Shown: positions 1-45,688 of the stretch, one piece after another
Position numbering within the stretch: position 1 is the stretch's first letter
Layout of the letters: every line of letters begins with the position of its first letter
IMG/VR virus record: IMGVR_UViG_3300035071_000047
Direction: 5' to 3' (one strand)
DNA from: an uncultured virus (IMG/VR IMGVR_UViG_3300035071_000047)
Lineage: Duplodnaviria > Heunggongvirae > Uroviricota > Caudoviricetes
Length of the DNA stretch: 64,000 nt
Notes under the pieces: model-generated
Database searches by the model: none
What the model was told of the DNA's origin: nothing
The model's input: only the letters and a program-made list of their open reading frames with translations
Program-made: the position numbers and the translations under genes

Positions 1-1044
1 GTCGGGCGGCAGCTCGACGTGCTCGACGACACCCTCCTCGTTGATCGTCGTGAGCACGCGGGTGCCGGTCGGGGTGACGCGCCAGCCGACGTTCACCGCG
101 AGGCGCCCAGTTCCACAGGTGTGGACCGCGCCGTCGTCGGGCAGGTCGACGGTCAGGACCGCGTACCACTCATCCTCATGCGACCCGATCCTCCGCAGCG
201 CGACCGCCGCCTCCTTCAGGATGGCGCCCGGTGGCAGCGGGCGGTGCATGACCATCGGCCACGACGCCCACACGGGTGCCTTCTTCGGCCCCTGCGACCC
301 GACGCGCAGGTGCAGGACGGTCCGCATGGCCTGCCGCCGGCTCGCACCGGGCGCACGCGGCCCACCGCCCTTGTCGAGCCACGCGCGCTCGTCCACGGGG
401 TCGATCCGGATCTGCGAGTCGGACCCGAAGATCTTCTCGACGGGTAGACCTCCCTGGATCTGCACGCCGACGCGCCCCTCGCCGCTCCAGCGGGAGAAGT
501 GGGGATCGGACGGGTCGGCACCCTCGTAGAGCGGCATCTTGCTCGCCTGCTCCGCGGCGGCCTCGACGAGCAGGTACGTCCCCCAGGCCCCCGCGTGCGG
601 CCCCTGGCTCCCAAGGCCGCTGTAGGCGCGCGCGCTGCGCCGCAGGTCGGCCGCCCTCTGCGCGATCTCGTCGCGCGCCGCCACGATCGTCGGATCTTCG
701 CGGAGCTTGTGGCGCGCCTCCTGGAGCTGGCGGCGCGCCGCGGACCGCGCCGCGCGCGCGGCGGCGAGCGCGGACCTCATCTCCTGCGACTCCGACCGAG
801 ACCGCGTCTTGGCGCGTGTCTTGAGGACGACCTGCAGCGCGACGTTCATCGCCGCGTCGGCCGCCTCGTAGGCGGCGAGCAGAGCGGGGACGTCGCCCGC
901 GGAGCTCTCGGCCAACCGGACGGCCGCGCGGCGACCGCGCTCGATCTCGATCAGGGTGTTGTAGTAGCGATGCGCGAGCCTCATCTGCTCGCGGACGAGC
1001 GTCGTGTTCGGGGCCAGTAGGCCGTATCGATAGACTCGAATCAT
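1..1044 (-). CDS. cas12m: Cas12m-like (type V-M / V-U1, TnpB-derived) CRISPR effector, N-terminal 348 codons; 3' end lies outside the window
   Basis: Hand translation (absent from the ORF track): MIRVYRYGLLAPNTTLVREQMRLAHRYYNTLIEIERGRR... long Ala/Arg helical hairpin ...AWGTYLLVE...FSRWSGEGRVGVQIQGG...LHLRVGS...PVWASWPMVMHRPLPPGAILKEAAVALRRIGSHEEWYAVLTVD...GRLAVNVGWR. This follows the Cas12m motif order as recalled (EQLWLAH, YWASFN, RFDGSGTIAVQLQ, VHRWLP, VALHLGWR). AAGGAG RBS at 1056-1051; alternative ATG at 1050. Adjacent to a repeat array. Confidence 0.85.
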   Translation of the reverse strand, partial: MIRVYRYGLLAPNTTLVREQMRLAHRYYNTLIEIERGRRAAVRLAESSAGDVPALLAAYEAADAAMNVALQVVLKTRAKTRSRSESQEMRSALAAARAARSAARRQLQEARHKLREDPTIVAARDEIAQRAADLRRSARAYSGLGSQGPHAGAWGTYLLVEAAAEQASKMPLYEGADPSDPHFSRWSGEGRVGVQIQGGLPVEKIFGSDSQIRIDPVDERAWLDKGGGPRAPGASRRQAMRTVLHLRVGSQGPKKAPVWASWPMVMHRPLPPGAILKEAAVALRRIGSHEDEWYAVLTVDLPDDGAVHTCGTGRLAVNVGWRVTPTGTRVLTTINEEGVVEHVELPPD

Positions 1045-1069
1045 GATCATCTCCTTATGTATGCGTCTC

Positions 1070-1314
1070 GTCGAGACATTTCAAACCGTCTCGATGGTTC
1101 TAGAGGACATCGTCCCACGTCGAGATACCAAAACCGTCTCGCTAGTTCTGCGACCGCGTCCATGAGTCGAGACATCCAAACCGTCTCGCTGGTTCTGTAA
1201 CTGGTTCAGGCATTCCTGCGCGCCTGGAACTTGTCGAGACTATCAAACCGTTTCGCTAGTTCTGAGAGCCTTGCACTGGACGGGTCGATACGCCCAAACC
1301 GTATCGCTGGTTCT
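1070..1314 (-). CRISPR. Degenerate CRISPR mini-array: 5 repeats (31-32 nt) and 4 spacers (17, 16, 36, 20 nt)
   Basis: Repeats at 1070-1101, 1119-1149, 1166-1196, 1233-1263, 1284-1314. Minus-strand consensus AGAACYAGCGAGACGGTTTGNNNGTCTCGAC has a CGAGAC/GTCTCG stem followed by 3' AC, like Cas12m repeats. Spacers are unique. Confidence 0.88.
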
Positions 1315-2120
1315 TACTCCTCGAATGGGTCCACCTTCAAGCTATCGACCATCTTGTCGAACTCCGTCGGGTCATTCTCGACGACGACGAATCGTCGCCC
1401 TAGCTTGCGGGCCGCGTGCGCCGTCGTTCCCGAGCCGGCGAACGGGTCGAGGACCCACTCGCCAGGATCCGTGTGCACCTCGATCGGCACCTCCATGAGC
1501 CGCTGCGGCTTCTGGTTCACGTGCGTCTTGCCGCGCAGGATCTCCGTCACGTCGGTCCACACGTTCGTGCGGCGCAGGAACTCGCTCTTGGCAGGATGCT
1601 CAGGATCGTAGCCGGCGTAGCCACGCTTCTCATCGAGCAACGGGACCGTAAACTTGCGCGGCTTCTTGTGGTCGCCAAGAACGAGGTACGCGAGCTCCTC
1701 GCGCGTGAAGAGGTAGCCCCACTGGATGCCGTACGCGCGCTTCTTCTTCCACGTGATGGGCGTCGACAGTGCGTAGCCCGTCTGCAGCTCGACCTCGACG
1801 AGGTAGCGGAGGAACGGTCGAAACGGAGGTGTCTTGCCGTCGCGCGGCAGACCGACGCCTCCCCAGCAGTACAGGGCCGATCCAGGGAGGCTCATGTCCT
1901 GGATACGCTGAGTCCAGTTGATCATCCACGCGCAAAACTGCCGGTCGTCGACGTCGATCCGGTCCCACGTCTCGTCAACGATGTTGCCATACGGTGGGTC
2001 CGCGATCACGAGCGGGAGCGGTCCGGCAGTGTCGGAGACGAGTCGCAGGACGTCCGGGTCGGGAAACGCTCCACGGATGGCGATCCCGTCGCCGAAGGAC
2101 ACGCGCATCGGGCTAGTCAC
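1314..2120 (-). CDS. DNA methyltransferase, N6-adenine/N4-cytosine (beta class)
   Basis: IADPPYG catalytic motif precedes HVNQKP and VLDPFAGSGTT (SAM-binding). Confidence 0.9.
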   Translation of the reverse strand: MTSPMRVSFGDGIAIRGAFPDPDVLRLVSDTAGPLPLVIADPPYGNIVDETWDRIDVDDRQFCAWMINWTQRIQDMSLPGSALYCWGGVGLPRDGKTPPFRPFLRYLVEVELQTGYALSTPITWKKKRAYGIQWGYLFTREELAYLVLGDHKKPRKFTVPLLDEKRGYAGYDPEHPAKSEFLRRTNVWTDVTEILRGKTHVNQKPQRLMEVPIEVHTDPGEWVLDPFAGSGTTAHAARKLGRRFVVVENDPTEFDKMVDSLKVDPFEE

Positions 2121-2337
2121 GGCGCTTCGGCTCCAGCGTCGTCCACCACGCGTGCCCGCAGTCGAGGCACGTCATGTTGGTGAGCGTGACGACGTGGTAG
2201 CCGCGACGGACGCGGCGCTTCGACTCGCGCTGCGGCGCGTTCGGGACGACGCGACACCCGAGAATCGACGAAGTCTTGCCATATTGGCCGCGCCGACACT
2301 TCGGGCATTTGGTGGCGATGGGACGACCGGTGGTCAC
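2113..2337 (-). CDS. Small zinc-ribbon protein
   Basis: CPKC...CLDCGH; overlaps neighbouring genes. Confidence 0.55.
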   Translation of the reverse strand: MTTGRPIATKCPKCRRGQYGKTSSILGCRVVPNAPQRESKRRVRRGYHVVTLTNMTCLDCGHAWWTTLEPKRRD

Positions 2338-2557
2338 GCGTACCTCGACGCGCGCGACCAGTCCACCGTGCGCCTGCGGCGGCGGAGTAGCTCCGGGTGC
2401 TCGCCCGGTATCCAGAAGAGACCGATCGATCTAAACCCGCTTCCGCTCAGGAACGCGCGAGCCTCCTCGAGATCTCGGAAGCGCGGCTTGCCGTTTGGTC
2501 GGGTCGCCCACGCGCCGGCGGGACACCAAGTCGATCGTCTCGCGGGTCGACGGGTCG

Positions 2558-2884
2558 TCACGACTTCACCGGATCCGGTAACTTGAGCACCCTGCGTATC
2601 GCGGGCTCGTCCTTCAGTTCGAGCGCCAGCGCGGCCTGGTCCTCCGCGTCGACCGTCTCGTCGAACTCGCCGTCGATGACGCGCGCGGCGACGGTGTTGA
2701 GCGAGGCGTCGCGAAGCGCGTCGACGAGGGCGCATTTTGGTGCGGCGTGCTCGCTCTTGAAGTCGTGGAACTCCCCGGCGCGGGCGCGATCGCAGATCGA
2801 CCGGATTTTGTAGACCTTGGTGGCGCCGCACGACGGGAGGAGTGCCTCCAGCTCGGCGACGAGGTCGGTGCGCGTGTCCTTCAC
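2558..2884 (-). CDS. Hypothetical phage protein
   Basis: GTG start overlapping the upstream stop; normal composition (GEFHDFKS...IDGEFDET). Confidence 0.6.
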   Translation of the reverse strand: MKDTRTDLVAELEALLPSCGATKVYKIRSICDRARAGEFHDFKSEHAAPKCALVDALRDASLNTVAARVIDGEFDETVDAEDQAALALELKDEPAIRRVLKLPDPVKS

Positions 2885-3156
2885 CTGCACTCCTTGATCT
2901 GTTTGAGGATCGCCGCGATCGCCGGGTGCTCGTCGCTCGGTAGCGCGGCGCCGCCCTTGTACCTGACGGCCACCACGCGGCACCGGACCAGGATGTCGAT
3001 CATCTCGTCGATGTCGCCGACCGACGTCGCGATCGGGAAGGAGTCGTCGCCGATGACGACCGTGACGTCCGCCTCGCGCTTGTCGCCGCAGGACAGGGAG
3101 ACCTCGAGCTCGCCGTCGTCGGTCTCCCACTCGGTGTGAAAGTCGGGGCGGATCAC
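2881..3156 (-). CDS. Hypothetical protein
   Basis: Coupled ORF, MIRPDFHTEWETDDG. Confidence 0.55.
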   Translation of the reverse strand: MIRPDFHTEWETDDGELEVSLSCGDKREADVTVVIGDDSFPIATSVGDIDEMIDILVRCRVVAVRYKGGAALPSDEHPAIAAILKQIKECR

Positions 3157-3710
3157 CAGTGCTCCCGCCCCCAGTCGCCGAGCCGCTCGTCCATCTGCGC
3201 CTCGGTCTCCGGGTTGAGATGGTGACCCTCTACCATCGTCAGGTAGAACTCGCGCCATCGCTTCCTGAAGCGCTCGTCGGGATGCTTGAATCCGAGGATC
3301 TGCGCGCCGTGCATCAGGTGGTTCAGGTAGTGCGAGGCGAGCTCGTCGCGGTTGTCCATGAATCGCTTCACGGCTTCCGCCCACTGCGCGTCGTCGGCGA
3401 AGACGTCGAGGCTCATGAACGTGTCGGCGCGCTCGCCCCACTCGAGCAGGCGGCCATACTTGCCGGCTAGGAACACGCACGCGCGGTAGGCGATGCAGAT
3501 CGGCTTGCACGCGTGGTGCTTCGCGACGCCGTCCGGCCCTCGAGCACCGAGGAACAGAACGCTCTGCTGTTGCAGCGGTAGAGCGATGCACCACGCAGGC
3601 TGGACGGAGACGGCGCGACTCGTCGCGGACGGCAGAGCGCCGGGTCGGTCCGGGTCCACGCCGGGGCAGACCAGGATCATCGGGATCGGAGTCGTCTCGG
3701 TGGTCGTCAC
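3153..3710 (-). CDS. Hypothetical phage protein
   Basis: Motif-rich ORF (QQSVLFLGARGPDG, HLMHGAQILGFKHP, HLNPETEAQMDERLGD); GGAGG RBS. Confidence 0.7.
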   Translation of the reverse strand: MTTTETTPIPMILVCPGVDPDRPGALPSATSRAVSVQPAWCIALPLQQQSVLFLGARGPDGVAKHHACKPICIAYRACVFLAGKYGRLLEWGERADTFMSLDVFADDAQWAEAVKRFMDNRDELASHYLNHLMHGAQILGFKHPDERFRKRWREFYLTMVEGHHLNPETEAQMDERLGDWGREHW

Positions 3711-3981
3711 GACCCCTCCATCTTCTTGAGGTAGAGGATCTCGGACGTGACGAGCCCGGCGAACGCGAACCACGGGTTCGTCCTCTCGTCGTCGGTTGAC
3801 TTTTGGAGGAGCCGGTGGAGGCTCTTGAACGCGCCGTCGAAGTCGCCCTTCAGGATGTCGCGGCAGATCATCTTGGGGACTGCCGTCCCAGTCCCGTTCG
3901 CCGTGTCGATCTGTCCGCCGGCGACGGCGATGCGCATGATGGCGTCCCACCGTCGGTCTACCGCGTGGTCGTCCGCGACCT

Positions 3982-4524
3982 TCACGACCCGCCCCGCTTT
4001 GCCGTGCAGGTGTCCGCGGCCGCATCGAGCCCATCGCGCACGACCTGCTTGATCAGCGCGATCGCGGCGCGCTCGTCGCCGCCTCGACTCATGTTCATGT
4101 GGACGAGCGTCGCGACGCGTAGCGCGCGTTCGTCGTCGGTGGTAGCGGGGACGCCCGACTGGGCGTCGACGAAAGCGCCAGCAGCGGCGCCGCGAAGCGA
4201 TATTTTGGCCATGGTCTCCTCCTGGAACACGCATCCTCGATCGAATCGGTGGGCGGCGCGCGTGCGACGGCACGCGACGCAGAGGTCTTGGAGTGGCGAT
4301 CGGTTTCTCCACGGGCAGGCGCACACGTCGTCTGCCTCGGGGTCCGGGTCGAGCGGCTTGTAGCAACCGTACGCGTCGCGGCCGATCCCGCCATCTCCGA
4401 AGCAGATCGGCGTGTCCCAGTGCATGAGACCGCGCTCCTTGAGGCAGTACCCGCACCCGCACTCGCACGAGCCGCCGTACTCGCAGCTCCCGTGAGTGCC
4501 GTTGCAGTGGAAACCATTGCCCAT
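3982..4524 (-). CDS. Cys-rich hypothetical protein; possible internal start at 4212
   Basis: Many CxC/CxxC motifs in the N-half; GGAGGAG RBS before the in-frame ATG at 4212. Confidence 0.45.
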   Translation of the reverse strand: MGNGFHCNGTHGSCEYGGSCECGCGYCLKERGLMHWDTPICFGDGGIGRDAYGCYKPLDPDPEADDVCACPWRNRSPLQDLCVACRRTRAAHRFDRGCVFQEETMAKISLRGAAAGAFVDAQSGVPATTDDERALRVATLVHMNMSRGGDERAAIALIKQVVRDGLDAAADTCTAKRGGS

Positions 4525-4536
4525 TCTCAGCGATCC

Positions 4537-4845
4537 TCAGCTTCGCGACGCCGCTATCCTGCGACCGACGGCCAGCTCGACCGAGATGACCATCGGGGTT
4601 CCGCAGATCGGACACGGCCTGTCGGCGCAGACGTCGACGCGCTCCTTCGCTACACAGTTATCCACGCGTTCCTCCGCCTTCCAGTATCGCTGAAGCGCCT
4701 TCAGGTGTCGTTCGCTCATCTCCTCAGCACTCTTCCTCTTCTCACGCTCGCGTTGCCACTGGAGTATAAAATAGGTAACAGCGAGTGTGGACGCGACGAA
4801 CCACACCATCAGCATGATCCCGGCGATTGTAGTGATCTGGATCAT
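4537..4845 (-). CDS. Membrane-anchored protein with CPICG motif (paralog of 5316-5642)
   Basis: N-terminal hydrophobic helix; PCPICGTPM. Confidence 0.6.
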   Translation of the reverse strand: MIQITTIAGIMLMVWFVASTLAVTYFILQWQREREKRKSAEEMSERHLKALQRYWKAEERVDNCVAKERVDVCADRPCPICGTPMVISVELAVGRRIAASRS

Positions 4846-5312
4846 AACGGCTTTCCGCTCGGGTGCCCCGCGTTCCACGCGCGCACGAAGTTGTCCGCGA
4901 TCTCTCTGACCGACTTTGTGATCGCGTCGAGATCGTCGCCGCGATGTCTGCCGACGCGAACGAGCAAGCTGTAGTAGCGCCGCTTCGTGACGGCCATCTC
5001 GGGCCGGAAGTCAGCCGGCCCGTCGCCGAAATCGATCGCCTCGCCGACCTCGTAGGGGAGGCTCACCAGCAACGGGTCGACGTCTCCACACTTGGCGACC
5101 TGTTCGACGAGCTGCAGGGCGGCCACGAGGAACACGCGGCAAAATCTCCTGCGATCTGCGACCGCCGTCGCCACGGACGGGATCTCTTCCTCCGTCGTCG
5201 ACACGACGAAGCTCGCTGTCGGCGACCCGTCCGTGAATCGCACGAAGAGTTTCATTGGCGTATCGACGCCCGCTACGGCCCCGCGAAGAGTGATTTCTTT
5301 GGCCACGATCAT
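4842..5312 (-). CDS. Hypothetical protein
   Basis: Coupled ORF in the operon. Confidence 0.55.
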   Translation of the reverse strand: MIVAKEITLRGAVAGVDTPMKLFVRFTDGSPTASFVVSTTEEEIPSVATAVADRRRFCRVFLVAALQLVEQVAKCGDVDPLLVSLPYEVGEAIDFGDGPADFRPEMAVTKRRYYSLLVRVGRHRGDDLDAITKSVREIADNFVRAWNAGHPSGKPL

Positions 5313-5315
5313 CTC

Positions 5316-5642
5316 CTACTTCTTGCTCGACTCGGTCGCGTCCCGCGGTGGTGTCATGACGATCGCGACCAATGTTCTGCGCCTGCGCACGGCAAGGTCG
5401 ACGGCGAAGTCCATCGGCGTTCCGCAGATCGGGCACGGCTGGTCGGAGGAGGGAGCACCTACGGCCTGTCGTCGACGCGCGTCGCTTCGACTTTCTTCAT
5501 CTCGGTACGACTGGACCGCCTCCTCGGCGTCCTGTCGCCGTCTACGCTCATCCAGCCATGCGAAGAGTAGGATGGTGGCGACGATCGTCGCGACAACGAG
5601 CCAGATCTGAATGAGGATCGCGTCGGCGACGGTGAGTGTCAC
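5316..5642 (-). CDS. Membrane-anchored protein with CPICG motif (paralog of 4537-4845)
   Basis: N-terminal hydrophobic helix; PCPICGTPM. Confidence 0.6.
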   Translation of the reverse strand: MTLTVADAILIQIWLVVATIVATILLFAWLDERRRRQDAEEAVQSYRDEESRSDARRRQAVGAPSSDQPCPICGTPMDFAVDLAVRRRRTLVAIVMTPPRDATESSKK

Positions 5643-6235
5643 AGCGCCTCCCCACTCTCTCGGTCGAAGGCGCGGCGAACTAGATGCGTGAGCAGCTTCC
5701 AGCTCTCCTGGCTCCCGTCGTATCGGAAGACGCGTCCGTGGTGGCGCGAGCCACCATCGGCGAAACTCGTGTTCCACGGCTGCGCGACGCAGACGACGAG
5801 GCCGTTCGGGCGCTTCGTGAGCCACGGTAGGAAGTACTCGGGCCAGTCGTCGACGAGGACGCGGCCGTACATGATCGACTTGTCCTGCGTGACGGTGACC
5901 GGCGTGCCCGGCAGGTGCGTCTGCGCCCACTGCAGCTTCTCGCCCCACGCGCTCGGGGCACCCGCGGGCCCTTTGGTCAGCACCATGAGGGAGAAGCCGA
6001 CCGTCTTGAGGTGGTGCGCGACGGTCATCCCGAGCGGGTGCTCGGGCAGGTCGCGCCAGAAGCCGGGGACCTGCTGGATCAGCTTCCGTCGGGCCGTCAC
6101 GTACGATGGCTCGTCGTCGCGATCGTAGGGTGACTCGATCGGCGCGCGGATGAAGGCGAGTCGCTCGCGCATGCCGCGGTCGTAGTCGACGACGGTGCCG
6201 TCCAGGTCGATGAGGGCGATCTTGTCGGTGTCCAT
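5639..6235 (-). CDS. HAD-superfamily 5'(3')-deoxyribonucleotidase-like protein
   Basis: LIDLDGTVVD motif I, GFWRDL, EKLQW, DKS...VLVDD, QPWN. Confidence 0.8.
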   Translation of the reverse strand: MDTDKIALIDLDGTVVDYDRGMRERLAFIRAPIESPYDRDDEPSYVTARRKLIQQVPGFWRDLPEHPLGMTVAHHLKTVGFSLMVLTKGPAGAPSAWGEKLQWAQTHLPGTPVTVTQDKSIMYGRVLVDDWPEYFLPWLTKRPNGLVVCVAQPWNTSFADGGSRHHGRVFRYDGSQESWKLLTHLVRRAFDRESGEAL

Positions 6236-6447
6236 CGTTCGCTACTTCTCCGGATTCGGCGTACTGGGCCAATCGTACGTCTTGCCGTCCATCTTCAGTC
6301 CGATCAGCTCCGTCGATCCCATCCCGACCGCAAACATGACAGCGAAGCGCGCGTACGCGAGCGCGTCATCGTGGTTGTCGCCGTCGAATTTGTCGCCGTA
6401 GGCGAGGCAGAAGAGCACGCGCTCACGCGGATCGGTCGGGAGCGGTC

Positions 6448-6669
6448 TCATGGGCCCACTCCACTTCCGCCGCACGTCGGGCACGGGTGTCGCTTCTTGA
6501 ACGCGAGGACGAGCTCGGCGCGCGAGTGGACGCCGAGCTTCGTGTACGCGCGACGCAGGAGCGTTCGCGTCGTGGCATAGGCGATGCCCAGCTCCGCGGC
6601 CATCTCCTTGTCGGTCTTGGCTTGCTGTAAGAGGCGGACCAGGTCGAGCTCGCGCGGCGTGAGCTTCAC
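6448..6669 (-). CDS. LuxR-type HTH regulator with C-terminal CxxC
   Basis: LTPRELDLVRLLQQAKTDKEMAAELGIAYATTRTLLRRAYTKLGVHSRAEL. Confidence 0.85.
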   Translation of the reverse strand: MKLTPRELDLVRLLQQAKTDKEMAAELGIAYATTRTLLRRAYTKLGVHSRAELVLAFKKRHPCPTCGGSGVGP

Positions 6670-7370
6670 GGCGTCCTCACGTACGGCTTGCACCGCTCGA
6701 GGACGTCGCGCACGAGGGCCAGATCGAATCGGTCGTTGTCGTCCCGGACGCCGCTCTCCATGTCGATCCAGGTGACGTGGTCGTGACGTACGCTCTTGAT
6801 GAGCGATTCGACGGTGGATGGTCTGATCCCGCCCGCGAACCCCATGCTCACGTCACGCGCGGGCCAGCTCGTTGGATAGACGGCCTCGATGCCACGGCCG
6901 GCGGACGCATCGAGGAGGATGGACGCGCGTCCACCTCCGGCTTGGATCGCACGGACGTCCTGCGCGGCGATCTCGAGCAGGGCCTCCTCGCGGACTTGAA
7001 GGATGAACTCGAAGAAGCGTATCCAGCGAGGCGCGATCGCCACGAGTCCGAGAGCGGGCGGCGCGTAGCCGTTCACCTGGACGCGTTGGAACGGGACGCG
7101 TCCCGTGACTCCGGCGCGATTGACCTGGAGCATCAGGTAGTCGTCGCGCCCGTTGAGCGTGCCGCGCGCGCTCGCACCGCAGAGGTGAAGCGACGTTCGC
7201 ATCTCCGGCAGCGAGTCGATCCACTCCTGGCTCGGGTAGCGCGGCGTCCCGTGTCGCTTCTCGGAGTAGAGGATCCCCCACTCGACGAACGGGAACGCGT
7301 GAGTCAGCGCGAGGAGCGAGTTTGGGTCGACGCGGTCGTCGGCGCCGGAGATGGTGACGCGGGAGATCAT
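6666..7370 (-). CDS. TIM-barrel protein of phosphoribosylanthranilate isomerase-like type seen in large phages
   Basis: VTISGAD, FPFVEWGIL, RYPS, SLHLCG, LLDASAGRG, GFAGGI, WIDMESGVR. Confidence 0.75.
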   Translation of the reverse strand: MISRVTISGADDRVDPNSLLALTHAFPFVEWGILYSEKRHGTPRYPSQEWIDSLPEMRTSLHLCGASARGTLNGRDDYLMLQVNRAGVTGRVPFQRVQVNGYAPPALGLVAIAPRWIRFFEFILQVREEALLEIAAQDVRAIQAGGGRASILLDASAGRGIEAVYPTSWPARDVSMGFAGGIRPSTVESLIKSVRHDHVTWIDMESGVRDDNDRFDLALVRDVLERCKPYVRTP

Positions 7371-7999
7371 TCGCCGACCACTTCGTGCGAGATCGGTTCA
7401 CCGTGCTCGTTCTTCGGGTGCGACGGATCGGTCGCGTGTGCGCCGCAGAGCGCGCTCGGGAAAGTCTCGCCCGCGCCGACCTCCCACGTGATGGCTCGGT
7501 CGCGGCAGTCGAGCTTGAAGCACGTCGGGAACAGGTCTGGCCTCAGCGGAGACGGCTTCGCCCACTGGAGCGAGCCGTGCGGCGACGTGCCCGGATACAT
7601 GCTTCTGATCGAGATGTTGACCTGTTTTCCAAACATAGGCTCCACCATCTCCGTGACGATGTTATCGAGTTCATCGAAGTCGCCTCGCGACGAAACGTCG
7701 GGATTGCTCAGCGCCGTTCGGATCCTGGATTCGTACGACTTCCACTTTTCCACGATCTGCTGCGCGTCGTCGCGGGCCTCCACGATCGACATGAGCTCCC
7801 GGAACCTGGATCCCATGCTGTGGTTCGGACCGCAGGCGGCGATGCGGACCTGGCGGCCGAGCGCGCGCCACTGAGTCTCGCCTGTCTTGAGTCGATCGAT
7901 CTCGGCGAGCAGCTCCTGAGCTTCGTGGCCGCGGAGGTCGCCGTACGCAGCCTGCTTCCGGAGGCTCGCGAGACGTTCGTCAGAGATTCGTTCTTTCAC
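7367..7999 (-). CDS. Hypothetical protein
   Basis: GGAGG RBS and GTG start; coupled to neighbours. Confidence 0.55.
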   Translation of the reverse strand: MKERISDERLASLRKQAAYGDLRGHEAQELLAEIDRLKTGETQWRALGRQVRIAACGPNHSMGSRFRELMSIVEARDDAQQIVEKWKSYESRIRTALSNPDVSSRGDFDELDNIVTEMVEPMFGKQVNISIRSMYPGTSPHGSLQWAKPSPLRPDLFPTCFKLDCRDRAITWEVGAGETFPSALCGAHATDPSHPKNEHGEPISHEVVGE

Positions 8000-8216
8000 C
8001 GCGCACCTCCCACGTAGCGACCAACCGGCTTGCGCCGGTACTGGCTCTTCTCGTGCGTCGCGGCCCTGGCGTGCCCGAGATCCACAAGTGCATCGTCGAG
8101 CGCGACGCAGAGCGCCGACCCCGGGCGCACGTAACGCGTCAGCAGGTTGTCGATCGACGACATCACGCACTCGATCTCGGCCTGCGCGAAGTCACGCGAC
8201 GATCGCTTGGACATCG

Positions 8217-8528
8217 TCACGCGACACCTCCCTTAACTGCGGATTCAGGCTTCCAGATTTCCAGCTCCAACGCGAGGTCGTCGGCTCGCTTCTTCTGCTT
8301 GACGGCGTCGTCGACGGCGACCCTAAGGCTAGCGCGCAGCTTTTCCACTTCTGCACGCAGAGTCTCAATCTCCGACTGTGATTTGATGAAAACCATCGCG
8401 TGCCCATTCGGGCAGAACATGGCATCTCCAGTCTCTCTCCGCTTGAGCACGATTCGTTTCAAGAAATGGAATCGGATCCCGCAGTAGATGCAGTCGATGT
8501 GCTCAAGTTCGTTGTCCGCGTCGACCAT
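8217..8528 (-). CDS. Zn-ribbon plus coiled-coil protein
   Basis: CIYCG...FCPNGH followed by a heptad segment. Confidence 0.6.
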   Translation of the reverse strand: MVDADNELEHIDCIYCGIRFHFLKRIVLKRRETGDAMFCPNGHAMVFIKSQSEIETLRAEVEKLRASLRVAVDDAVKQKKRADDLALELEIWKPESAVKGGVA

Positions 8529-8876
8529 TTATGCCTCCTTGCGCGCTCTGCGTAGGACCTTCAGGTCGTACTCATCGAGTCCGGCGGCCTTCAGCTCGTC
8601 GATCGTGATACCGGCGGATTTGAGGACCTCGATCACAAGGCTAGCTCGGTCGATACGTCGCTGAGACTCGGCGAGCGCGACGGCGAACCCGCACATCCAC
8701 TCGGCTTTGCACTTTTCGGCAACTTCGACGTCGACGCGCAGACGCTCACTGCGCTGCCCTCGATGGTACGCGTTGATCTCCGCGCGCGTCGTGAACGGCG
8801 TCGACAGGTGGCGGTGGCAGAACCGCTTGCCGACGACGTGTCCGTCGTCGCAGCCGGGGTAGTCGCAGCCGTTCAT
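8529..8876 (-). CDS. Hypothetical protein
   Basis: CDYPGC...FCHRH at the N-terminus; coupled ORF. Confidence 0.55.
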   Translation of the reverse strand: MNGCDYPGCDDGHVVGKRFCHRHLSTPFTTRAEINAYHRGQRSERLRVDVEVAEKCKAEWMCGFAVALAESQRRIDRASLVIEVLKSAGITIDELKAAGLDEYDLKVLRRARKEA

Positions 8877-9138
8877 TGTCCGTAGCTCCCGAGCGTCTTG
8901 TTCCTCGCGCGATCGATCGCGACCTCCTTGGTCAGCCGCTCGTCGCCGACACATGGGCACCACTTTCCGTCGAGGCACTGATCGATCGACCACGTCGAGT
9001 CCATCGCGCGGGCGACGCGAAACGTCCCGCGCGATCCGGTGAACGTGAACGCGGTAGCGGATGCGACGAGCGACTCGAGGACGCGCACGCGTCGCTCGAT
9101 CGACTCGATCGCGGTTTTCGCGTCGGCGAATTCGGAGA

Positions 9139-9771
9139 TCACAGCGCCTCCAGCGCGTCCGCCTTCGCGTCCGCCTTCTCCACGATCGAACGCGGGATGA
9201 AGTCGAGGTCTCCGTAGCCGGAGACGCTGTAGCCGAGCAGCTGATAGAACTGGGCGACGTCGTACCGGTTCATCGGACCCATGTTCTTGCCCAGGTCGTT
9301 GAGGTTCACGCGTCCCGAGTCGACGATCCATCGTACGACGGCGTTCGCTCGAAACCGCGCGACCCCGTCGTCGTCGACGTAGATGGGCTGCATGGGCGGC
9401 CGACGCGGCTTCGTCGGCTTCTTTTTTGGCGTCGAGCTGGAGAGGATGACCGCGTCGACCATTCGTTTGCACGTGTGGGTGAGGCCGGGCGCGGTCCCCG
9501 TGTAGAACTGCGATGCGCAGGCGCCGCAAGTCAGATCAACGCCCATGTTGAGGCAGGCGACGGCGATCTCCTTGTGCGTGAGCCCGCTCGCCAGCTTCGG
9601 GCACTCGACGATGTCGTCGAGAGCGAGCTGCTCGATGAGCGCGAAGTCTTTGGCGCGCTCGACGGCGTGCTGGACGCACAGGTTGATCGGCTGTCCGTAG
9701 ACGACGGATCCGCGTGCGACCCGAGGCTTGTCGCAGTACTGACAGAGGACGGCGGCGGTCACGGTTGCCAT
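9139..9771 (-). CDS. Hypothetical phage protein
   Basis: CxxC motifs; C-terminal PMQPI...RFRANAVV...QFYQLLGYSVSGYGDL. Confidence 0.65.
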   Translation of the reverse strand: MATVTAAVLCQYCDKPRVARGSVVYGQPINLCVQHAVERAKDFALIEQLALDDIVECPKLASGLTHKEIAVACLNMGVDLTCGACASQFYTGTAPGLTHTCKRMVDAVILSSSTPKKKPTKPRRPPMQPIYVDDDGVARFRANAVVRWIVDSGRVNLNDLGKNMGPMNRYDVAQFYQLLGYSVSGYGDLDFIPRSIVEKADAKADALEAL

Positions 9772-10163
9772 CAGCCATTCTCCACGATGGCTCGCAGTCG
9801 CGAGACTTCGCGCTCCGCGCGAGCTAGCTGGTCGATGTGGAACTGTCGCTCCTTGGCCCTCTCCATGGGTCGCAGCTTGGCTTCCGCCTCCTCGGCGGTG
9901 GCGGCCCAGACGTAAACGTCGCACTCAGGGACTTCGCGTTCGGCGACGACGGGTCGGTCGTAACGCAGCTTCCAGCGTTTCAGTCCGATCGAGTACCCAT
10001 CTGGCGGCGGCCCGTCCAGGACGACCTCCTCGACTTCCAGGTTGGAGTAAGCCTGCGCGTACGCGTCGGCTCGCCCCTGGTCGGTGAATGCGGCATCGAA
10101 GACTCGGGCAGACTCTTCGCTGTACTCTACCGATCGCGTGATGATGTAGATCGTCTGGCTCAC
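9771..10163 (-). CDS. Hypothetical protein
   Basis: Coupled ORF with GGAGGG RBS. Confidence 0.55.
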   Translation of the reverse strand: MSQTIYIITRSVEYSEESARVFDAAFTDQGRADAYAQAYSNLEVEEVVLDGPPPDGYSIGLKRWKLRYDRPVVAEREVPECDVYVWAATAEEAEAKLRPMERAKERQFHIDQLARAEREVSRLRAIVENG

Positions 10164-10838
10164 TTCGACCCTCCGATCGTCGCCTTGCGGCGACCGCTGC
10201 TGATCTCGTCGCGCACGAAGAACCAGCCCTTGTCGGTGATCCGACCGGCACCGTCGGTGAACCCGACGTCGCTCAGGATTCGTCGGTGGGTCGACGTGGA
10301 CTGGGAGACGCCTCGCTCTTTCGCCTGCGCGAGCCCGAGGAGCGCGTCCCACTGTCCGCGCGTGAGCTGGACGGACGTCGCGAGCGCCCTCCTCCCGGCC
10401 GGAGTACGAGCGAAGTGACCGCCGACCAGGTCACGTCCGACGAGGACGGCCCACCCTCGGTCGACACACGCGCAGGCCGCCATGTAGCTGCCACCCTTCA
10501 TGCGCGCGCCGTCGGATGGCCGATCGGGCATACGCTCGAGGACGCGTCGCTGGGCGTGGGTGAGGACCTCCAGGCGAGCTGTCATCGTTTCTCCCAGTCG
10601 GTGAGCGACATCCAAACTCGCGCAGCGGCCCACGCTGTCCTTGTGGCCTTCGCCAAGGTTGCCTCGGCGCCACCTCTCCTCGACTCGTTGTCGACAACGA
10701 AGTCCCATCGAAAGAGACCGCCTTCGCCTTTGGCGATGCAGATGCCCAGGCGCTCACCTTTGTAGACCCACGTCGTCCGACACGACGTCGTCTTCCATTT
10801 CAGCTCATTAAGCTTTGGCCAGCCGTTCTTGCGGGCGG

Positions 10839-11318
10839 TCATGGCTCTTCCTCCCAGTCGACGAGCGGCTGGATCGTCGCGAGCTCGGCGCGCGCCTCGA
10901 TGAGGCGTCGCTCGTGATAACGGACGTCGCGTTCGAGACGGATCCGCTTCTCCTCCGTGGGCGTCGGCGCGTGGTCGGGGTGTCTGCGCTTGCGCCAGCC
11001 GCGAATCGTGAAGCGTCGACCGTTCGTCGTCTCGATGCCCTCGATCGTCGAGGAGGGCTCGGCGTAGAGGGCGAAGCACCTCTGCCCCTTGAGTCGCTCG
11101 GGGTCGGCGCATCCGAAAGTGGCGCAGACCTCCGCGAAGAATTCCCTCGTCTCAGCTTTGTCGCGGAACGCGAGACCGCCGAACGTCTGGACCCAGCCGG
11201 CTCCTTCGAGCACGACCGACACGGTCCAGAGCTCGTGGTCTCTGTCCAGGCCGGCGAACGCGCTCACGACCGTCGCGGGCACACGGAGCTGATCTCGCGC
11301 GCGCTTGGTGCTCATCAT
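10839..11318 (-). CDS. Hypothetical phage protein
   Basis: Coupled ORF (WVQTFGG, LKGQRCFAL). Confidence 0.6.
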   Translation of the reverse strand: MMSTKRARDQLRVPATVVSAFAGLDRDHELWTVSVVLEGAGWVQTFGGLAFRDKAETREFFAEVCATFGCADPERLKGQRCFALYAEPSSTIEGIETTNGRRFTIRGWRKRRHPDHAPTPTEEKRIRLERDVRYHERRLIEARAELATIQPLVDWEEEP

Positions 11319-11755
11319 TCCCCGATCTCCGAAAGTACAGCGCTCAGCTCGTCGATCTGATCGTGGAGCTGGGCGTGCGTAACGCTCTGCTCTCTATTTT
11401 GCTTCGCACAGGTGCGAACGCCGTGAGCCGCGTCGGCGAGTCGTTTCAGTTTCGCGCGTAGCGCCGCGATCTCGTCCTGGACGTGAAGCTCGGCAACTGT
11501 GCGGACCTCGCCGGCTATGGGCTCGTCGCGGTAAGGATGATCACGCGGATCGAGCTTCTTTAGGACCTCGTCGATCGACTCCTTGACGCGGACGCGGTGG
11601 CTTCCCGCGAAGTACAGGATGGTGCCGTCGAGCTCGTTGCTCGCGTCACGGTTCTCTCCGATCCCGAGGATCCATGCGGGGGCAACGACGACGCGTCCAC
11701 CGACATACCCGTGGAGCTCGATCATCATCCCGCCCAGACGGCAGCGATCGGTCAT
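11315..11755 (-). CDS. FlbD-like N-terminal domain protein
   Basis: MIELH...VVVAPAWILGI...TILYFAG...VRVKESIDEVLKKL resembles the FlbD pattern. Confidence 0.5.
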   Translation of the reverse strand: MTDRCRLGGMMIELHGYVGGRVVVAPAWILGIGENRDASNELDGTILYFAGSHRVRVKESIDEVLKKLDPRDHPYRDEPIAGEVRTVAELHVQDEIAALRAKLKRLADAAHGVRTCAKQNREQSVTHAQLHDQIDELSAVLSEIGE

Positions 11756-11970
11756 GTCTTCCCTCCTCCCTTCTTCAGAAACCGTCGTGCCGTGAGGACG
11801 CCGAGCTCGATGATCGTACTGAGCGACACCGTCCTCGAACCCGCGGGCCGTAGCTCGGCGGGGAAGAGGGCCATCCCGTGCTCGTACAGCTCGTCTCGCA
11901 GCGACATCAGCGCGTCGTACGCGCGTTTCGTCACTTTGATGGACCGGTACTCGGGTTCTTCGTTCGCCAT
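11752..11970 (-). CDS. Putative ribbon-helix-helix DNA-binding protein, first gene of the leftward operon
   Basis: RSIKVTKRAYDALMSLRDEL...SLSTIIELGV fits a strand-helix-helix pattern. Confidence 0.5.
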   Translation of the reverse strand: MANEEPEYRSIKVTKRAYDALMSLRDELYEHGMALFPAELRPAGSRTVSLSTIIELGVLTARRFLKKGGGKT

Positions 11971-12082: not shown

Positions 12083-13087
12083 ATGCGAACCGACGACCTC
12101 GACCCCACTCCGACCCCGCTCTCCGGGGCCCTCGTTGCCCCCTCGGGGGTGGGGTCCGAGCTCATTTCGCGACCTCGGCGCGACCCCAATCGAAATCCAG
12201 CGACGATCTTCATCGCCACGCGGCTCTCCGAGAGGAGCAAAGGGACGATGCGCGAGGCCCTCGAGCGCATCGCGAAGGTCCTCGAGCTCCCGATGACGCC
12301 CGAGGAGATCCCGTGGGAGACCTTCGGGTTCGAGCGTACGAGCTTCGTTCGTAGCCGACTCCTCGCCGCGTACGGCCCCTCCACGGTCAAGCTGACGCTC
12401 TCCGCTCTTAAAGGAGTGCTCCGAACCGCCCGGCGGCTCGAGCTCATCAACCACGAGCAGTTCGCGAATGCGACCGACTGGGAGAAGGTCAGGGGGAGCC
12501 GGTTGTCGCGTGGACGCGCGCTCTCGAGCGAGGAGATCGCAAAATTACTCGCGTTCTGCCGATCGCAGGCCGATCCCTACGGCGCGTTCCTCACGGCGCT
12601 CTTCTCGACCCTGATCGGGCTCGGTCTGCGCGCCAGCGAGACCTGCCAGCTCACCCTCGGCGCCTACGACGCGGACGCGCGTGTCCTGCGCGTCCTGCGC
12701 AAGGGAAACAAGGAGGTCGAGCTCGCCGTCACCGAGGAGGCCGCGGCGATCGACCGCTGGCTCGTCGTGCGCAAGACGCTCAACGTGAGCACACAGTGGC
12801 TGTTTTTGCGGCCGATGAAGGACGGCGGCCTGCGCGTGGTCCCCCCGAACGTGAAGGGCCTCCAGTACCTCTGCCAAGAGGTCGCGACCGGGGCCGACAT
12901 CAAGAAATTCAGCCCTCACGACTGCCGGCGGACGTTCGGGACGCGGCTCCTCGACCAGGGGATCGACCTGTCGACGGTGCAGCGCCTCATGAGTCACGAG
13001 AGCCCCGACACGACGGTCAGGTACGACAAACGGCAGGCGAAGACGGATGCCGAGACGCGCGCGCGAGTGAGGGTGCTCGGGTCATGA
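12083..13087 (+). CDS. Tyrosine recombinase/integrase (XerC/Cre-like)
   Basis: GLRASE (R), RKGNK (K), SPHDCRRTF (HxxR), MSHESPDTTVRYD (H, Y). Confidence 0.93.
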   Translation: MRTDDLDPTPTPLSGALVAPSGVGSELISRPRRDPNRNPATIFIATRLSERSKGTMREALERIAKVLELPMTPEEIPWETFGFERTSFVRSRLLAAYGPSTVKLTLSALKGVLRTARRLELINHEQFANATDWEKVRGSRLSRGRALSSEEIAKLLAFCRSQADPYGAFLTALFSTLIGLGLRASETCQLTLGAYDADARVLRVLRKGNKEVELAVTEEAAAIDRWLVVRKTLNVSTQWLFLRPMKDGGLRVVPPNVKGLQYLCQEVATGADIKKFSPHDCRRTFGTRLLDQGIDLSTVQRLMSHESPDTTVRYDKRQAKTDAETRARVRVLGS

Positions 13088-42035: not shown

Positions 42036-43348
42036 GCCGTGGGACTCATCGGAGGAAAGAGGCGCTACGACCCGAACGACAGCGAGTACGTCGGTCGTCG
42101 TGGTGCGTGGTGGTCAGTCACGTGCAAGAGCGACCCGCGCTTCAACATGAGCGGCGACGCGTCCGGGACGTGGGACGCGATGATGAAGAGCGGCGCCGCG
42201 ATCGAGGCGAAGATCAAGGAGCTTGGTCTCGCCGAGTCGGAGATCCCGAAGGACATCGAGTACAGCGGGGGAAAGCCGTGAAGAAGCGGATCTATCGCAT
42301 CGTGGACGAGTCCGGGCACCAGCCGGCAGAGACGACGGAGGATCTCGGCGAGGCGAAGCGCATGCGCGATGCGATGGATCGCGTCCCGAAGAGCGGCCGG
42401 TGCGTCATCGGTGTCTACGCGCTGGTCGGCGAGATCGGGCCGCACGAGACGACGTCGACGAAGGGTGGTCACGCGAGGCAACCGAGATGAGCGTCGAAGA
42501 GCGGCAAGGTCCGTGTGACGGTTCGCACTCTGCCTGTTCGGTGTGCCGGACGATCCGATCGGAGGTCGATGCCGACATCATAGAGAAGATCGCTACATGG
42601 CTCGACGGGCTGGAGTCGTGTCTGGCGTACTTCGCACCAGTCGTGACCCGGCGGAGGTCTGCGCGTCCCTACGTGTCCCCTTCACGGAACGAGACGCCGG
42701 AAAGGAAGTGAGGCATGGGCCAGTGGGAGGACACGCCCGACGAGTGGACCGAGGAGATCGACGCCGCGTTCCCGACACGTAGCGGGTCGCATGAGGAGTA
42801 CGCGACGGCCCTGCGTATGGTTGGGAACCGCCACTCAAAGGGCGCGCTCGTCGCGCTCGTCAACTGGCTCCTCGTCCGATCGAAACAGCCTGTCCACAAC
42901 TGAGAAGGAGAAGCTGTAATGGCGGGTGCTAATCCGACGACAGCGCTCGGTTCGGGATACGTAGTGAAGGCTAACAGCCCAAGAGTACAAGTACGCAAAG
43001 CGCACGGCATCTGGCAGGTTCTCATCCACAAGAATGGCGAGACGTGGGCGGAGATTGTGGCGGAGCTTGCGACCGAGGGCATGGCTAGAACTGTCCGACG
43101 TCACATTCTAGTGTCCCCCGACGGAACGACGCGCCGGAGAAGGGGTGAGTGATGGCAGGTTTGAACGGCGCGTTCCACAAGCACCTCGACGTGTGCCGCA
43201 GGTGTGCCGATCACCCGTTCAACCTTTGCCCGATCGGCGCGAAGGCACTGGAGCAAGAGGCAAAGGAGGCGATGGCGTCGTTTGGCGGTCTCGTGGATCT
43301 GTCCACAATTCGTCAAGACGGACGTGGAAAACGATAAGGACGGTGGTC

Positions 43349-45688
43349 GTGGGCGAAGCTCGTCGAAAGCGCAGGCTGCTCGAGAAGGCCAACGGAAAGT
43401 TGGACGCGACGCGCGGCGCCTTGGCCGAATCAGAAGTCAAGGCCGTGGAGGCCAAGCGCAACCTCGACGAGGCCCAGCGTGGGCTCGATCAAAACAGAGC
43501 GGAGATCGACCGGATCACGCGACATCTCCAGCGAGAGATCGACGACCTGTGCGACCGCATCGGTCCCACCGTCCTACCGAAGGACGACGACGCCGTCGCA
43601 AAATTCTTCGTCGAGAACGACGTCGAGACGATGGACGCGGAGACGAGAGATCTCCGCCTTGCCGCCACCATCGTTCCGCTCATCGAGCGTCAGACGGACA
43701 CCTGCCGCGAGGTGGCCGCGTTCCTAGACACGCTCGACAGTGAGTTCGTGCAGGTCGAGGACCCGCTCAAGCTTCGTCTCACCGCGGAGATCGTCGCCAT
43801 CGTCTACGCCCGGCGCCTGATGACGACGTCGGCGGAGACGGAGGGTCGGTTCGTCCCGTTCAAGGAGATGGATTTCGCCAAGCACATGACGCCGAAGAGC
43901 ACGGTGCGCCACGCGAAGAAGGCGCTCGAGGCGTTTCTTCGGGCGCACGAGGTCGGACTGTCCGGGCCGGCGCTCAAAGCCAAACAGAAGCTCGACAAGG
44001 TCGACCCGCGCGTCCGGCTCCAGATCGAGAAGAACCTAGACGCAGACGGCAAGACGCGGCGCGATTTTGAGCTGACGCGCGACAACGTCATGCCCGCCTT
44101 CGAGACTCTCTACCCGGAGGTGCTGAGACACAACCGCACGGCGGCGTTCTCGAAGCTCTTCGAGCTCATCCACGCCGACCTGCTCACTGCGTCTTCGTTC
44201 GCCGGGCGCGAGCTGGCCGTCGACGTGATGGCGTACATCCTGGCCGAGCGGTTCGTTCAAGACGGGATCGTCAACGCGTTTGAGGAGACGGAACGAGGGT
44301 CACACCTGTTCGCGTCGAAGGACGGTACGAAGATCAAGTTCAACGATACAGACCCGCCGCTCACTGGGACAGCGCGTGAGGCGATGCTGGCATTCAACGA
44401 GCTATCGTACGAAGACCAGATCGAATTTATCAAAAAGGCAAAAAACCATAGTAGCGAGAATGCGCCCGCAGCGTTCGCCATGGTTGGTGACCATGAAAGT
44501 ATCCAAGATGCGTTCGATTTCGCATACGGAACTATCCTCGGTGAAATGTCCGATGAGGGCATCGCCAAAATAGCGACCCTCATGTTCGTGGAGGAGGCGC
44601 TCCTGCGGAAGCAGCGATCGGCGACGGAGGACCGCGAACGACACTCCGTGAGTGCCAACGGTGGGATCAGCTTCGGAAATCTCGACAAGAAGCCCACTCC
44701 GTTCCTCGACCACGCCCAGCTCTGGAGCGACCAAGAGCTGACTCGCGTCGGTCTCTCCCTCTGGACCAACACGTACAGGTTAGGCGCGTGCGACCAGGAG
44801 GTATTCGTCGCCGCGCGTGAGGTCGCCAAGGCGTGGGGTAAGGAGGCGCGGGAGCGTGGGGTGAAGGTCAACGGGTCGCGCGAGAACGTCGTCGAGGCCG
44901 TCGTCGGGTGGTCGGCGAAGTGGGCGGTCCACGCGTTCCAGCGCATCGCGACGTCACACACCTACGCGGCCGCCCTCATGTGCTCCGACGCGGACCGGTC
45001 GATCCTCGACGACCTCGAGATGCAGTGGCACGCCTTCATGGTCCTGGTGCCCGACGGGATCCTCGCGTACGAGGACGACCGCGGCGTCACCGTCGCGTAC
45101 GGCCGCGTCCTCGTCGCCTCGTACGACGGAGCCGCCTCGTTCGTCCTGCTCAACCAAGACGGCGGCCCGTCGAGCCACCGCATCTTCGTCCAGATCGCCG
45201 AGAACCTCGCCGACCTGCTCGAGATCAAGGAGGTCGAGCCGATCGAGGCGTTCGAGACGTCCGACGCGGAGCTCGCCGCGACCGAGCGTGCGCGGGCGCA
45301 GGTGCAGCGGATCATCGTCATGGCCAAGCGCCTCGTCGCAGGGCTCCTGCTCGCGCTCCAGAACCAGGACAACTTCAAGTCCAAGACCTACCCCGCGCGC
45401 GAGAACAAGAAGCCGCGTGAGCGCGAGGAGCCGACCCACCGCGTCGTCTTCGTCGGCTCGCCGCTCAAGATCGACTGCCGAAAGTCGGTCGCCGACTACA
45501 TCCGCAACGGGTCGCCGAAGAAGAAGGGTATGCCGCCGCAGGTCCAGGTCCTCGTTCGCGGGCACTACAAGCGGCAGGTCGTCGGCGTCGGGCGAAAGGG
45601 ACGGAAGGTGATCTTCATCCAGCCGTTCTGGCGCGGGCCCGAGGACGCGCCGATCCTCACGAGACCCAAGAAACTGGACGCGAACTAG
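43349..45688 (+). CDS. Large multidomain phage protein with C-terminal RGH motif
   Basis: MGEARRK start after AAGGA; coiled-coil N-terminus; C-terminus VRGHYKRQVVGVGRKGRKVIFIQPFWRGPEDAP. Confidence 0.75.
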   Translation: MGEARRKRRLLEKANGKLDATRGALAESEVKAVEAKRNLDEAQRGLDQNRAEIDRITRHLQREIDDLCDRIGPTVLPKDDDAVAKFFVENDVETMDAETRDLRLAATIVPLIERQTDTCREVAAFLDTLDSEFVQVEDPLKLRLTAEIVAIVYARRLMTTSAETEGRFVPFKEMDFAKHMTPKSTVRHAKKALEAFLRAHEVGLSGPALKAKQKLDKVDPRVRLQIEKNLDADGKTRRDFELTRDNVMPAFETLYPEVLRHNRTAAFSKLFELIHADLLTASSFAGRELAVDVMAYILAERFVQDGIVNAFEETERGSHLFASKDGTKIKFNDTDPPLTGTAREAMLAFNELSYEDQIEFIKKAKNHSSENAPAAFAMVGDHESIQDAFDFAYGTILGEMSDEGIAKIATLMFVEEALLRKQRSATEDRERHSVSANGGISFGNLDKKPTPFLDHAQLWSDQELTRVGLSLWTNTYRLGACDQEVFVAAREVAKAWGKEARERGVKVNGSRENVVEAVVGWSAKWAVHAFQRIATSHTYAAALMCSDADRSILDDLEMQWHAFMVLVPDGILAYEDDRGVTVAYGRVLVASYDGAASFVLLNQDGGPSSHRIFVQIAENLADLLEIKEVEPIEAFETSDAELAATERARAQVQRIIVMAKRLVAGLLLALQNQDNFKSKTYPARENKKPREREEPTHRVVFVGSPLKIDCRKSVADYIRNGSPKKKGMPPQVQVLVRGHYKRQVVGVGRKGRKVIFIQPFWRGPEDAPILTRPKKLDAN

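Follow-up and report, generated by a model that had tools for sequence, protein, structure and literature searches.

We analysed a 64-kb stretch of DNA (the window; IMG/VR record IMGVR_UViG_3300035071_000047; GC content 66.7%) that carries at its left edge the 5′ part of a type V-M cas12m gene (1..1044, minus strand) and, directly upstream of it, five clustered regularly interspaced short palindromic repeat (CRISPR) copies. Judged by their sequence, these repeats are genuine V-M CRISPR RNA (crRNA) scaffolds, each a two-stem pseudoknot ending in GAC. The unusual part of the locus is that the array is compact, diverged and structure-preserving, lies in the leader of the effector gene, and recurs in this form in relatives. 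Taking the evidence together, we lean modestly towards the reading that an Asn-type V-M Cas12m on a soil mobile element silences its targets through a small, static set of guides of minimal length. That this is a V-M Cas12m locus is nearly certain, and whether the compact array is a functional guide array is evenly poised.

The first-pass annotation had described a 5-repeat array directly upstream of the gene. This held: V-M-type pseudoknots in the orientation of the gene occupy 1070-1319, with copies starting at 1070, 1119, 1166, 1233 and 1284 in plus-strand coordinates. Read on the minus strand, on which all the following parts lie, the first copy is repeat E (1284..1319), whose 5′ end overlaps the stop codon of an upstream DNA methyltransferase gene and which carries a compensatory T-A pair in stem II. 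Variable segment 1 (1269..1283; 15 nt, or 19 nt between the 32-nt repeat cores) separates it from repeat D (1233..1268; one A-C mismatch in stem II), and variable segment 2 (1202..1232; 31 nt, 35 between cores), the sole spacer of near-canonical length, leads to repeat C (1166..1201), the most canonical copy, whose 32-nt core was also found with other inserts in soil metagenome runs. Variable segment 3 (1155..1165; 11 nt, 15 between cores), repeat B (1119..1154) and variable segment 4 (1107..1118; 12 nt between the 36-nt repeats, 17 between the 32-nt cores) follow. Repeat A (1070..1106), the last copy and the nearest to the gene, has a 1-nt loop insertion and ends 25 nt before the ATG at 1044. 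The array thereby spans the gap from the methylase stop codon to the cas12m ribosome-binding site.

In the minus-strand sense, the repeats can be aligned in every column with the 36-nt repeats found downstream of cas12m in 21 relatives, including the terminal GAC and the two interleaved stems of the pseudoknot. The pseudoknot shows covariation, with 86% of cells pairing compared to 60% after shuffling and 28–43% when partners are slid, and nine of its 11 pairs vary on both sides. It also agrees with the base pairs of solved crRNAs in a recent preprint (10.64898/2026.03.26.714355). Two covariance models were used. R1 contains the window's own copies, so that its scores are circular in the window and not at foreign loci, while R2 was built from the repeats of the 21 relatives only and is independent of the window. 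The two best R2 matches in the whole window are copies B and C, with 26.7 and 26.6 bits (E ~5e-4), B being the top one, and copy D scores 17.4 bits (E 0.065); the copies that score weakly with R2 were identified by their likeness to B and C, not independently. A solitary repeat-like match at 8632-8667 (plus strand), within a minus-strand open reading frame (ORF), reached 17.7 bits (E ~0.06) with both models; it is probably a chance match, though it scores like copy D. The minimum-free-energy fold of the whole leader gave a z-score of 0.23, which is uninformative, as the method cannot represent pseudoknots.

These results bear on whether the repeats belong to CRISPR at all. They might instead be DNA sites such as iterons or operators, or generic intergenic hairpins, and a position before a gene, uneven spacing and internal dyad symmetry would fit operators. 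We consider this very improbable, given the column-by-column match to the V-M repeats of 21 relatives with their covarying stems and terminal GAC, the first ranks of copies B and C in 64 kb under a model built without window copies, and the repeat-insert-repeat chains that the 32-mer forms in the source samples.

The five copies are 73–88% identical in pairwise comparison, and their differences are not evenly distributed. Variable columns make up 4 of 22 stem positions against 11 of 15 others (Fisher p 0.0017), and 53 of 55 pair cells still pair; the RNA structure of the repeats appears to be under selection. Their periods, 51, 67, 47 and 49 nt in gene order, compare with 71–76 nt in relatives, and no regular array of identical 36-nt repeats with ~36–37-nt spacers was found in the window. 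Because the first 4–5 bases of the 36-nt repeat are not conserved in the window copies, the unit is better described as a ~32-nt core followed by 19, 35, 15 or 17 nt of unique sequence. The segments of 15–19 nt between cores are close to the 17-nt guide used by Cas12m, whose heteroduplex measures 17–18 bp in published structures (PMC10442227, PMC11013384) and for which the optimum guide of an ortholog with an N-D-D catalytic triad is 17 nt (10.64898/2026.03.26.714355).

The favoured reading would then work as follows. The repeats read in gene direction and occupy the space from the methylase stop codon to the cas12m ribosome-binding site, so the array would most likely be part of the cas12m message, as its leader. 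Each unit would supply a ~32-nt handle and, behind it, a guide of 15, 17 or 19 nt (35 nt in one case). By analogy with its family, Cas12m would bind DNA flanked by a protospacer-adjacent motif (PAM) via the crRNA and silence it as a roadblock, without cutting. The guide set would be kept by selection and not by spacer acquisition, with its targets outside the window.

The same measurements also invite the view that the five copies are a functionless remnant of a decaying array and that the working guides come from a normally spaced one. At 73–88% identity the copies are unlike those of active arrays, their spacing is uneven, similar short degenerate units trail normal arrays at other loci (L002 and L011/L016/L017), and V-M loci lack adaptation genes (PMC11013384). 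We judge decay to be quite unlikely, since the substitutions avoid the stems, all but two of the pairs are kept with one compensatory change among them, and the array takes up precisely the interval between two genes of one operon. A compact array in a relative, described next, is likewise not expected of random deletion.

To place the array among its relatives, 88 related cas12m loci were compared (labelled L0xx). By a crude k-mer chain test, the array lies downstream of the gene in 42 of them, and many of the other 46 are too short for array position to be judged. At locus L067, 36 tandem units follow the Cas12m relative at 2853-4535, up to the end of the contig. Their period is mostly 45–50 nt (extremes 40 and 54), tight at 46–47 nt, and each unit consists of a ~30-nt core with compensatory stem changes and a ~17-nt unique segment. 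Random decay of 73-nt units would not yield so tight a period. An nhmmer count of unit lengths was set aside as too insensitive, as it found two repeats in L067 compared to 36 with the covariance model. Short periods also occur in a stretch of L024 (47–56 nt) and at the far end of the L002 array (43–64 nt). Two further short-period arrays, in L025 (3909-4289) and L041 (3549-3824), contain near-identical short spacers that recur, which suggests growth through duplicated repeat-spacer units and not through acquisition. At L022, three model matches lie 36 nt apart at 3825-3932 (starting at 3825, 3861 and 3897), back to back and with no spacer.

A search of 87 loci with model R1 for repeats in the leader of the gene (threshold E 0.05 in 61 loci, E 0.02 in 26) identified same-strand copies no more than 300 nt ahead of the start in seven: L019, L020, L023, L033, L059, L063 and L076. 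In the near-identical loci L019 and L020, five copies that have diverged from one another precede the gene at periods of 63, 57, 48 and 64 nt, and no downstream array was detected at the thresholds used. The distance from the end of the last leader repeat to the start codon is 25 nt in the window, 28 nt in both L076 and L033, 30 nt in L059 and 107–265 nt in L019, L023 and L063. In L076 (4937-5003) and L033 (332-444), the leader repeats are solo or paired diverged copies between a promoter-like site and the cas12m start, and both loci have normal arrays downstream of the gene as well.

This geometry raises the question of whether the leader repeats are a source of guides at all. They could be docking sites for Cas12m in its own mRNA: the last repeat would be bound and the next 17–20 nt, including the ribosome-binding site, would sit in the guide channel, so that the protein would throttle or stabilise its own translation while the other copies titrate it. 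The short distance of 25–30 nt to the start in the window, L076, L033 and L059 fits such a role, as does the AAGGAG of the window, which would occupy positions 14–19 of the guide after repeat A. The solo, structure-keeping diverged repeat of L076 follows a promoter-like TATGAT and coexists with a normal array downstream of the gene, same-strand upstream repeats occur in seven of the 87 loci, and repeat-like regulators upstream of cas12a are established (10.1101/2023.03.03.530964 and 10.1101/2024.10.29.618823). However, the 107–265 nt in L019, L023 and L063 mean that occlusion of the ribosome-binding site is not general, and five copies with unique segments exceed the need of one docking site. 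The mechanism of CreR, an RNA made from degenerate repeats upstream of cas genes, moreover requires a PAM-flanked partial match to the cas promoter; among 17 leader segments from six loci no self-target seed of at least 10 nt was found within 700 nt, the one 9-nt seed, in L019, being at chance level. We regard a purely cis-regulatory leader as unlikely. A repeat 25–30 nt before the start in four diverged loci makes a simple, testable model of RNA-level self-regulation, which is not described for type V-M in the literature searched.

The compact and the leader observations can also be joined into one proposal, which we hold only tentatively and, as a whole, find rather unlikely. V-M would have a second array format in which the unit of ~46–51 nt equals the mature crRNA, a ~30-nt handle plus a ~17-nt guide. 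Its repeats would drift yet keep the pseudoknot by compensation, and such arrays would grow or persist without Cas1-Cas2. Where the format lies in the leader (the window, L019, L059, L076 and L033), the last unit would make the cas12m mRNA itself act as a crRNA, with its own ribosome-binding site in the place of the 'guide', and so provide direct translational feedback.

The first-pass annotation had further taken the five units to be the element's own fixed guide set, and this is now doubtful. Three soil-metagenome runs (X1–X3) contain the stretch, two of which are possibly its source and hence not independent; no RNA run was listed as containing it, which counts neither for nor against expression. 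When contigs of these runs were placed on window positions 1–2400, depth over the bin with repeats B and C was 80.5 against ~9 in the flanks in X1, 137.8 against ~15 in X2 and 27.9 against ~4–5 in X3. The depth of the repeat-C core was 9- to 15-fold that of the flanks, and a 32-nt contig identical to this core reached 232.5 in X2. In the runs, at least 10 different inserts of 27–40 nt lie between repeat copies, six of them between two repeat-C cores, and the depth of the insert-carrying contigs tracks that of the flanks (7.8–10.4 in X1, 14.6–15.2 in X2 and 5.1–6.5 in X3). A roughly normally spaced array with the same repeat therefore probably exists at the same abundance, most likely on the same replicon and just past the window's left edge, which is where the arrays of relatives are located. 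It may possibly belong instead to the host or to a sister element of equal abundance. Because the same repeat flanks other inserts at matching depth, the picture of a lone, fixed mini-array is weakened.

Several further observations weigh against a functional compact guide array as part of the reading we favour. When the variable segments were compared with both strands of the window, no seed reached 11 nt and no exact 14-mer turned up, the single 13-mer match including four repeat bases. Segment 2, the 31/35-nt segment, had a best E of 0.4 against phage and plasmid records, which is chance level, and its 20-mer was not matched exactly by any viral contig. In these searches, no protospacer was found for the proposal that the guides repress host genes or competing elements. 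If the full 36-nt repeats are taken as boundaries, the segments measure only 11–15 nt, perhaps too short as guides, and the short-period degenerate units that end the otherwise normal array of L002 look like decay. Model R2 scores copy E at only 10.8 bits (E 2) and does not list copy A. L009, the closest relative with upstream DNA (60% identity over residues 3–215), is without leader repeats, and the C-terminal half of the protein lies outside the window. A scan of 900–2900 for sigma-70-like promoters returned 0 sites, and the two terminator-like sites in the same scan are at shuffle level. Because of this lack of a sigma-70-type promoter, co-transcription with the methylase gene is the simplest assumption, and the methylase is probably co-transcribed with the array and cas12m.

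The assignment of the gene is firmer. The first-pass annotation had reported an open minus-strand frame from 1044 to the window edge with Cas12m/V-U1-type motifs, and both parts stood up to closer analysis. The frame 1..1050 (350 aa) has no stop codon up to the left edge, and a second in-frame ATG lies at 1050. Its GC content at third codon positions is 0.91–0.92 in DNA of 66.7% GC, which identifies it as a real gene. A Shine-Dalgarno-like AAGGAG, read from the sequence at 1051..1056 (minus strand), lies 6 nt ahead of the ATG at 1044, and the nearest homolog, P0001, starts MIRVYRYGL, for which reasons the start is most likely at 1044, leaving ~348 codons before the gene runs out of the window. 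A protein search with 8000 scored candidates returned 98 proteins at E ≤0.001, most of them 550–613 aa long and many carrying PF07282, the TnpB/Cas12 zinc-ribbon domain. Going by these homologs of ~600 aa, about 250 codons would be missing beyond the left edge. Protein-guided scans of viral, metagenome and genome contigs for the remainder gave only relatives of at most 60% identity, and an exact 60-mer from the window is absent from viral contigs; Logan contigs reach 155 nt (X1) and 248 nt (X2) beyond window position 1.

Sequence and structure comparisons of the visible half, as proposed in the first-pass annotation, side with Cas12m and not with TnpB or Cas12f. Using phmmer with the 350 aa against all PDB sequences, we found five Cas12m-type matches, with E values of 1.8e-21 for 23vw (the best), 2.8e-12 for 8pm4 and 5e-9 for 8hhl/8hio; their molecule names are Cas12m, Cas12m2 and UnCas12m4a, 8pm4 being deposited as 'Transposase'. 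A sixth match, a 76-aa protein at E 0.61, is at chance level. PADLOC labels the protein Cas12u1 (E 1.5e-42), as V-M used to be called. The profile built from the window protein and 24 of the 98 homologs covers the Cas12m structures over their full length (E 1.4e-140 to 1.8e-53), whereas against TnpB, Cas12f and relatives it matches the C-terminal RuvC/zinc-ribbon part only, at E 1e-6 or weaker. The AlphaFold2 model of the 350 aa (predicted local distance difference test score, pLDDT, 86; predicted template-modelling score, pTM, 0.79) has 8pm4, 8hhl and 8hio as its top Foldseek matches (E ~1e-14, template-modelling (TM) score 0.64–0.66), while the best Cas12f or TnpB match has TM ≤0.31. The RuvC/zinc-finger C-terminus is seen in most of the 24 aligned homologs, P0092 being without the Cys motif. 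P0001 is the closest full-length homolog (55% identity) and shares a small insertion with the window protein; its RuvC-I residue is Pro and its RuvC-II residue Ala. The window gene is thus a type V-M cas12m, with membership secure for the visible N-terminal half. The 550–613-aa homologs with arrays, the C-terminal-only profile match and an N-terminal half that matches Cas12m alone speak against an identity as TnpB or TldR.

The residue at the RuvC-I catalytic position is Asn, at codon 91..93 (minus strand), where AVNVGWR aligns with the consensus VAIDxGWR, as had been read from the sequence. In the 24 aligned homologs this RuvC-I column holds Asp in 17, Asn in three, His in two, and Pro and Glu in one each. 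Among the 88 locus proteins, with near-duplicate loci retained, the residue is present in 77: Asp in 61, Asn in 12, His in three and Gly in one. Cas12m clades with HEK/HQK, HDD, DED/NED and DED/DND/NED triads have been catalogued (PMC10442227), the structure of an N-D-D ortholog has been solved (10.64898/2026.03.26.714355), and D-E-D, H-D-D and N-D-D orthologs all bind PAM-flanked DNA and none cut it; the RuvC Asp is dispensable for pre-crRNA processing (PMC11013384). The Asn fits the family and is not enough alone to set the window protein apart, because 12 of 77 related proteins share it and binding without cleavage is the family norm. The earlier statement that Cas12m binds DNA without cutting it therefore agrees with published orthologs and is not new. 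A binding-only Cas12m on a mobile element is probably the right description, but one already known for Cas12m, and a dead Cas12 acting as RNA-guided repressor on such an element adds one more member to described behaviour.

The surroundings of the gene are clearly those of a mobile or viral-like element. Gene scans covered up to 82 predicted ORFs with Pfam, NCBIfam, PHROG and PADLOC. No Cas1, Cas2 or Cas4 was found with these four libraries, in line with the earlier reading of the window. A phage operon, as also proposed, was not confirmed, in that no terminase, portal, capsid or tail family was matched in the PHROG, Pfam and NCBIfam scans of the 82 ORFs; a phage identity of the element is plausible at most. 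Directly upstream of the array, on the same strand, lies an N6/N4 DNA methyltransferase gene (1314..2120, minus), whose start is overlapped by a small Cys-rich ORF of 74 aa (2113..2337, minus) with weak zinc-ribbon matches. The minus strand carries all predicted genes in 1–11970 and the plus strand nearly all of those from 12083 onward, the two blocks diverging from a gap beside a tyrosine integrase gene (12083-13087) assigned by family match. A Dam-type DNA methylase (47042-47896) is the second methylase of the window. The other family matches are an HNH protein, an ATP-dependent ligase, a 5′-nucleotidase-like protein, a LuxR-type regulator and a glycosyltransferase, and most of the 82 ORFs match no family; six large ORFs have no Pfam match at E up to 1, and a megablast of positions 1–3000 gave no match. 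A sigma-70 family factor of 464 aa (57703-59097, plus) has regions 2 and 4, is RpoH-like and also matches the MzaA defence-system model. The protease-like protein of 147 aa at 50302-50745 (plus; phrog_11227, E 1e-51) had tblastn matches in 63 phage records, the 12 listed all being ~300 kb, and shares 63–67% identity with proteins from Klebsiella and Serratia phages of that size; it is the sole hint of large-phage affinity in the window. Finally, an 847-aa ORF (43145-45688, plus) has no Pfam family and no tblastn match, a PHROG of unknown function covers its residues 731–842, and the ESM Atlas clusters closest to it are AcrVA2-like (anti-CRISPR V-A2) with a score of 0.85, below evidence level.

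If units of 46–51 nt load and function, they would be the shortest possible natural multiplex guide cassette for a miniature DNA-binding effector. Compact units would in that case be useful for Cas12m designs in CRISPR interference, base editing and epigenome editing, and they would raise the question of how arrays are built and kept up without an adaptation module. Compact or leader arrays for V-M were not described in the literature searched, the founding paper of Wu et al. 2022 being outside its scope.

Compared with known Cas12m proteins (MmCas12m2, 8HHL/8HIO; GoCas12m, 8PM4; and the N-D-D PmCas12m), the N-terminal 350 aa of the window protein are alike in sequence and fold, its homologs of ~600 aa have the zinc-ribbon C-terminus, and the RuvC-I Asn is as in published NED and NDD triads. 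With known V-M systems the locus shares the 36-nt-type pseudoknot repeat ending in GAC, and there is no trans-activating crRNA and no cas1, cas2 or cas4 nearby. It differs in that its array lies upstream of the gene, whereas those of relatives usually lie downstream, in units of 47–51 nt (one of 67) instead of ~73 nt, and in repeats that have diverged from one another. TnpB and TldR, at ~400–500 aa, use a single long guide RNA beside the gene and have no repeat array. Their homology is distant and does not extend beyond the RuvC/zinc-ribbon portion of the family profile; the N-terminal half of the window protein matches only Cas12m.

The closest parallel to the leader position is found in CreR and cr-like RNAs, which come from degenerate repeat units ahead of cas12a and other cas genes and autorepress the cas promoter. 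As in these systems, degenerate, structure-preserving repeats immediately precede the effector gene in the window, a feature that a minority of related loci also show, but the window has five units, not 1–2, and a PAM-flanked partial match to a nearby promoter was looked for and not found. No description of CreR-like elements for V-M was found, a survey preprint naming Cas12m in its reference list only. As regards the carrier, V-M systems on plasmids and prophages have already been reviewed (PMC11656645). Myxophage MV-1 is reported to have a V-M locus with eight spacers, for which no targets were found (preprint 10.64898/2026.09.14.751636), and Virus Rctr197k (KX853510), a 197-kb Caudoviricetes record, encodes a homolog of 33% identity followed by an annotated 1.5-kb CRISPR region. 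All three share with the window a Cas12m and an array without adaptation genes on a mobile element. MV-1 keeps the D-E-D triad, whereas RuvC-I of the window protein has Asn, and the arrays of MV-1 and Rctr197k are normal ones beside or after the gene, in contrast to the visible array of the window, which is of the compact leader type.

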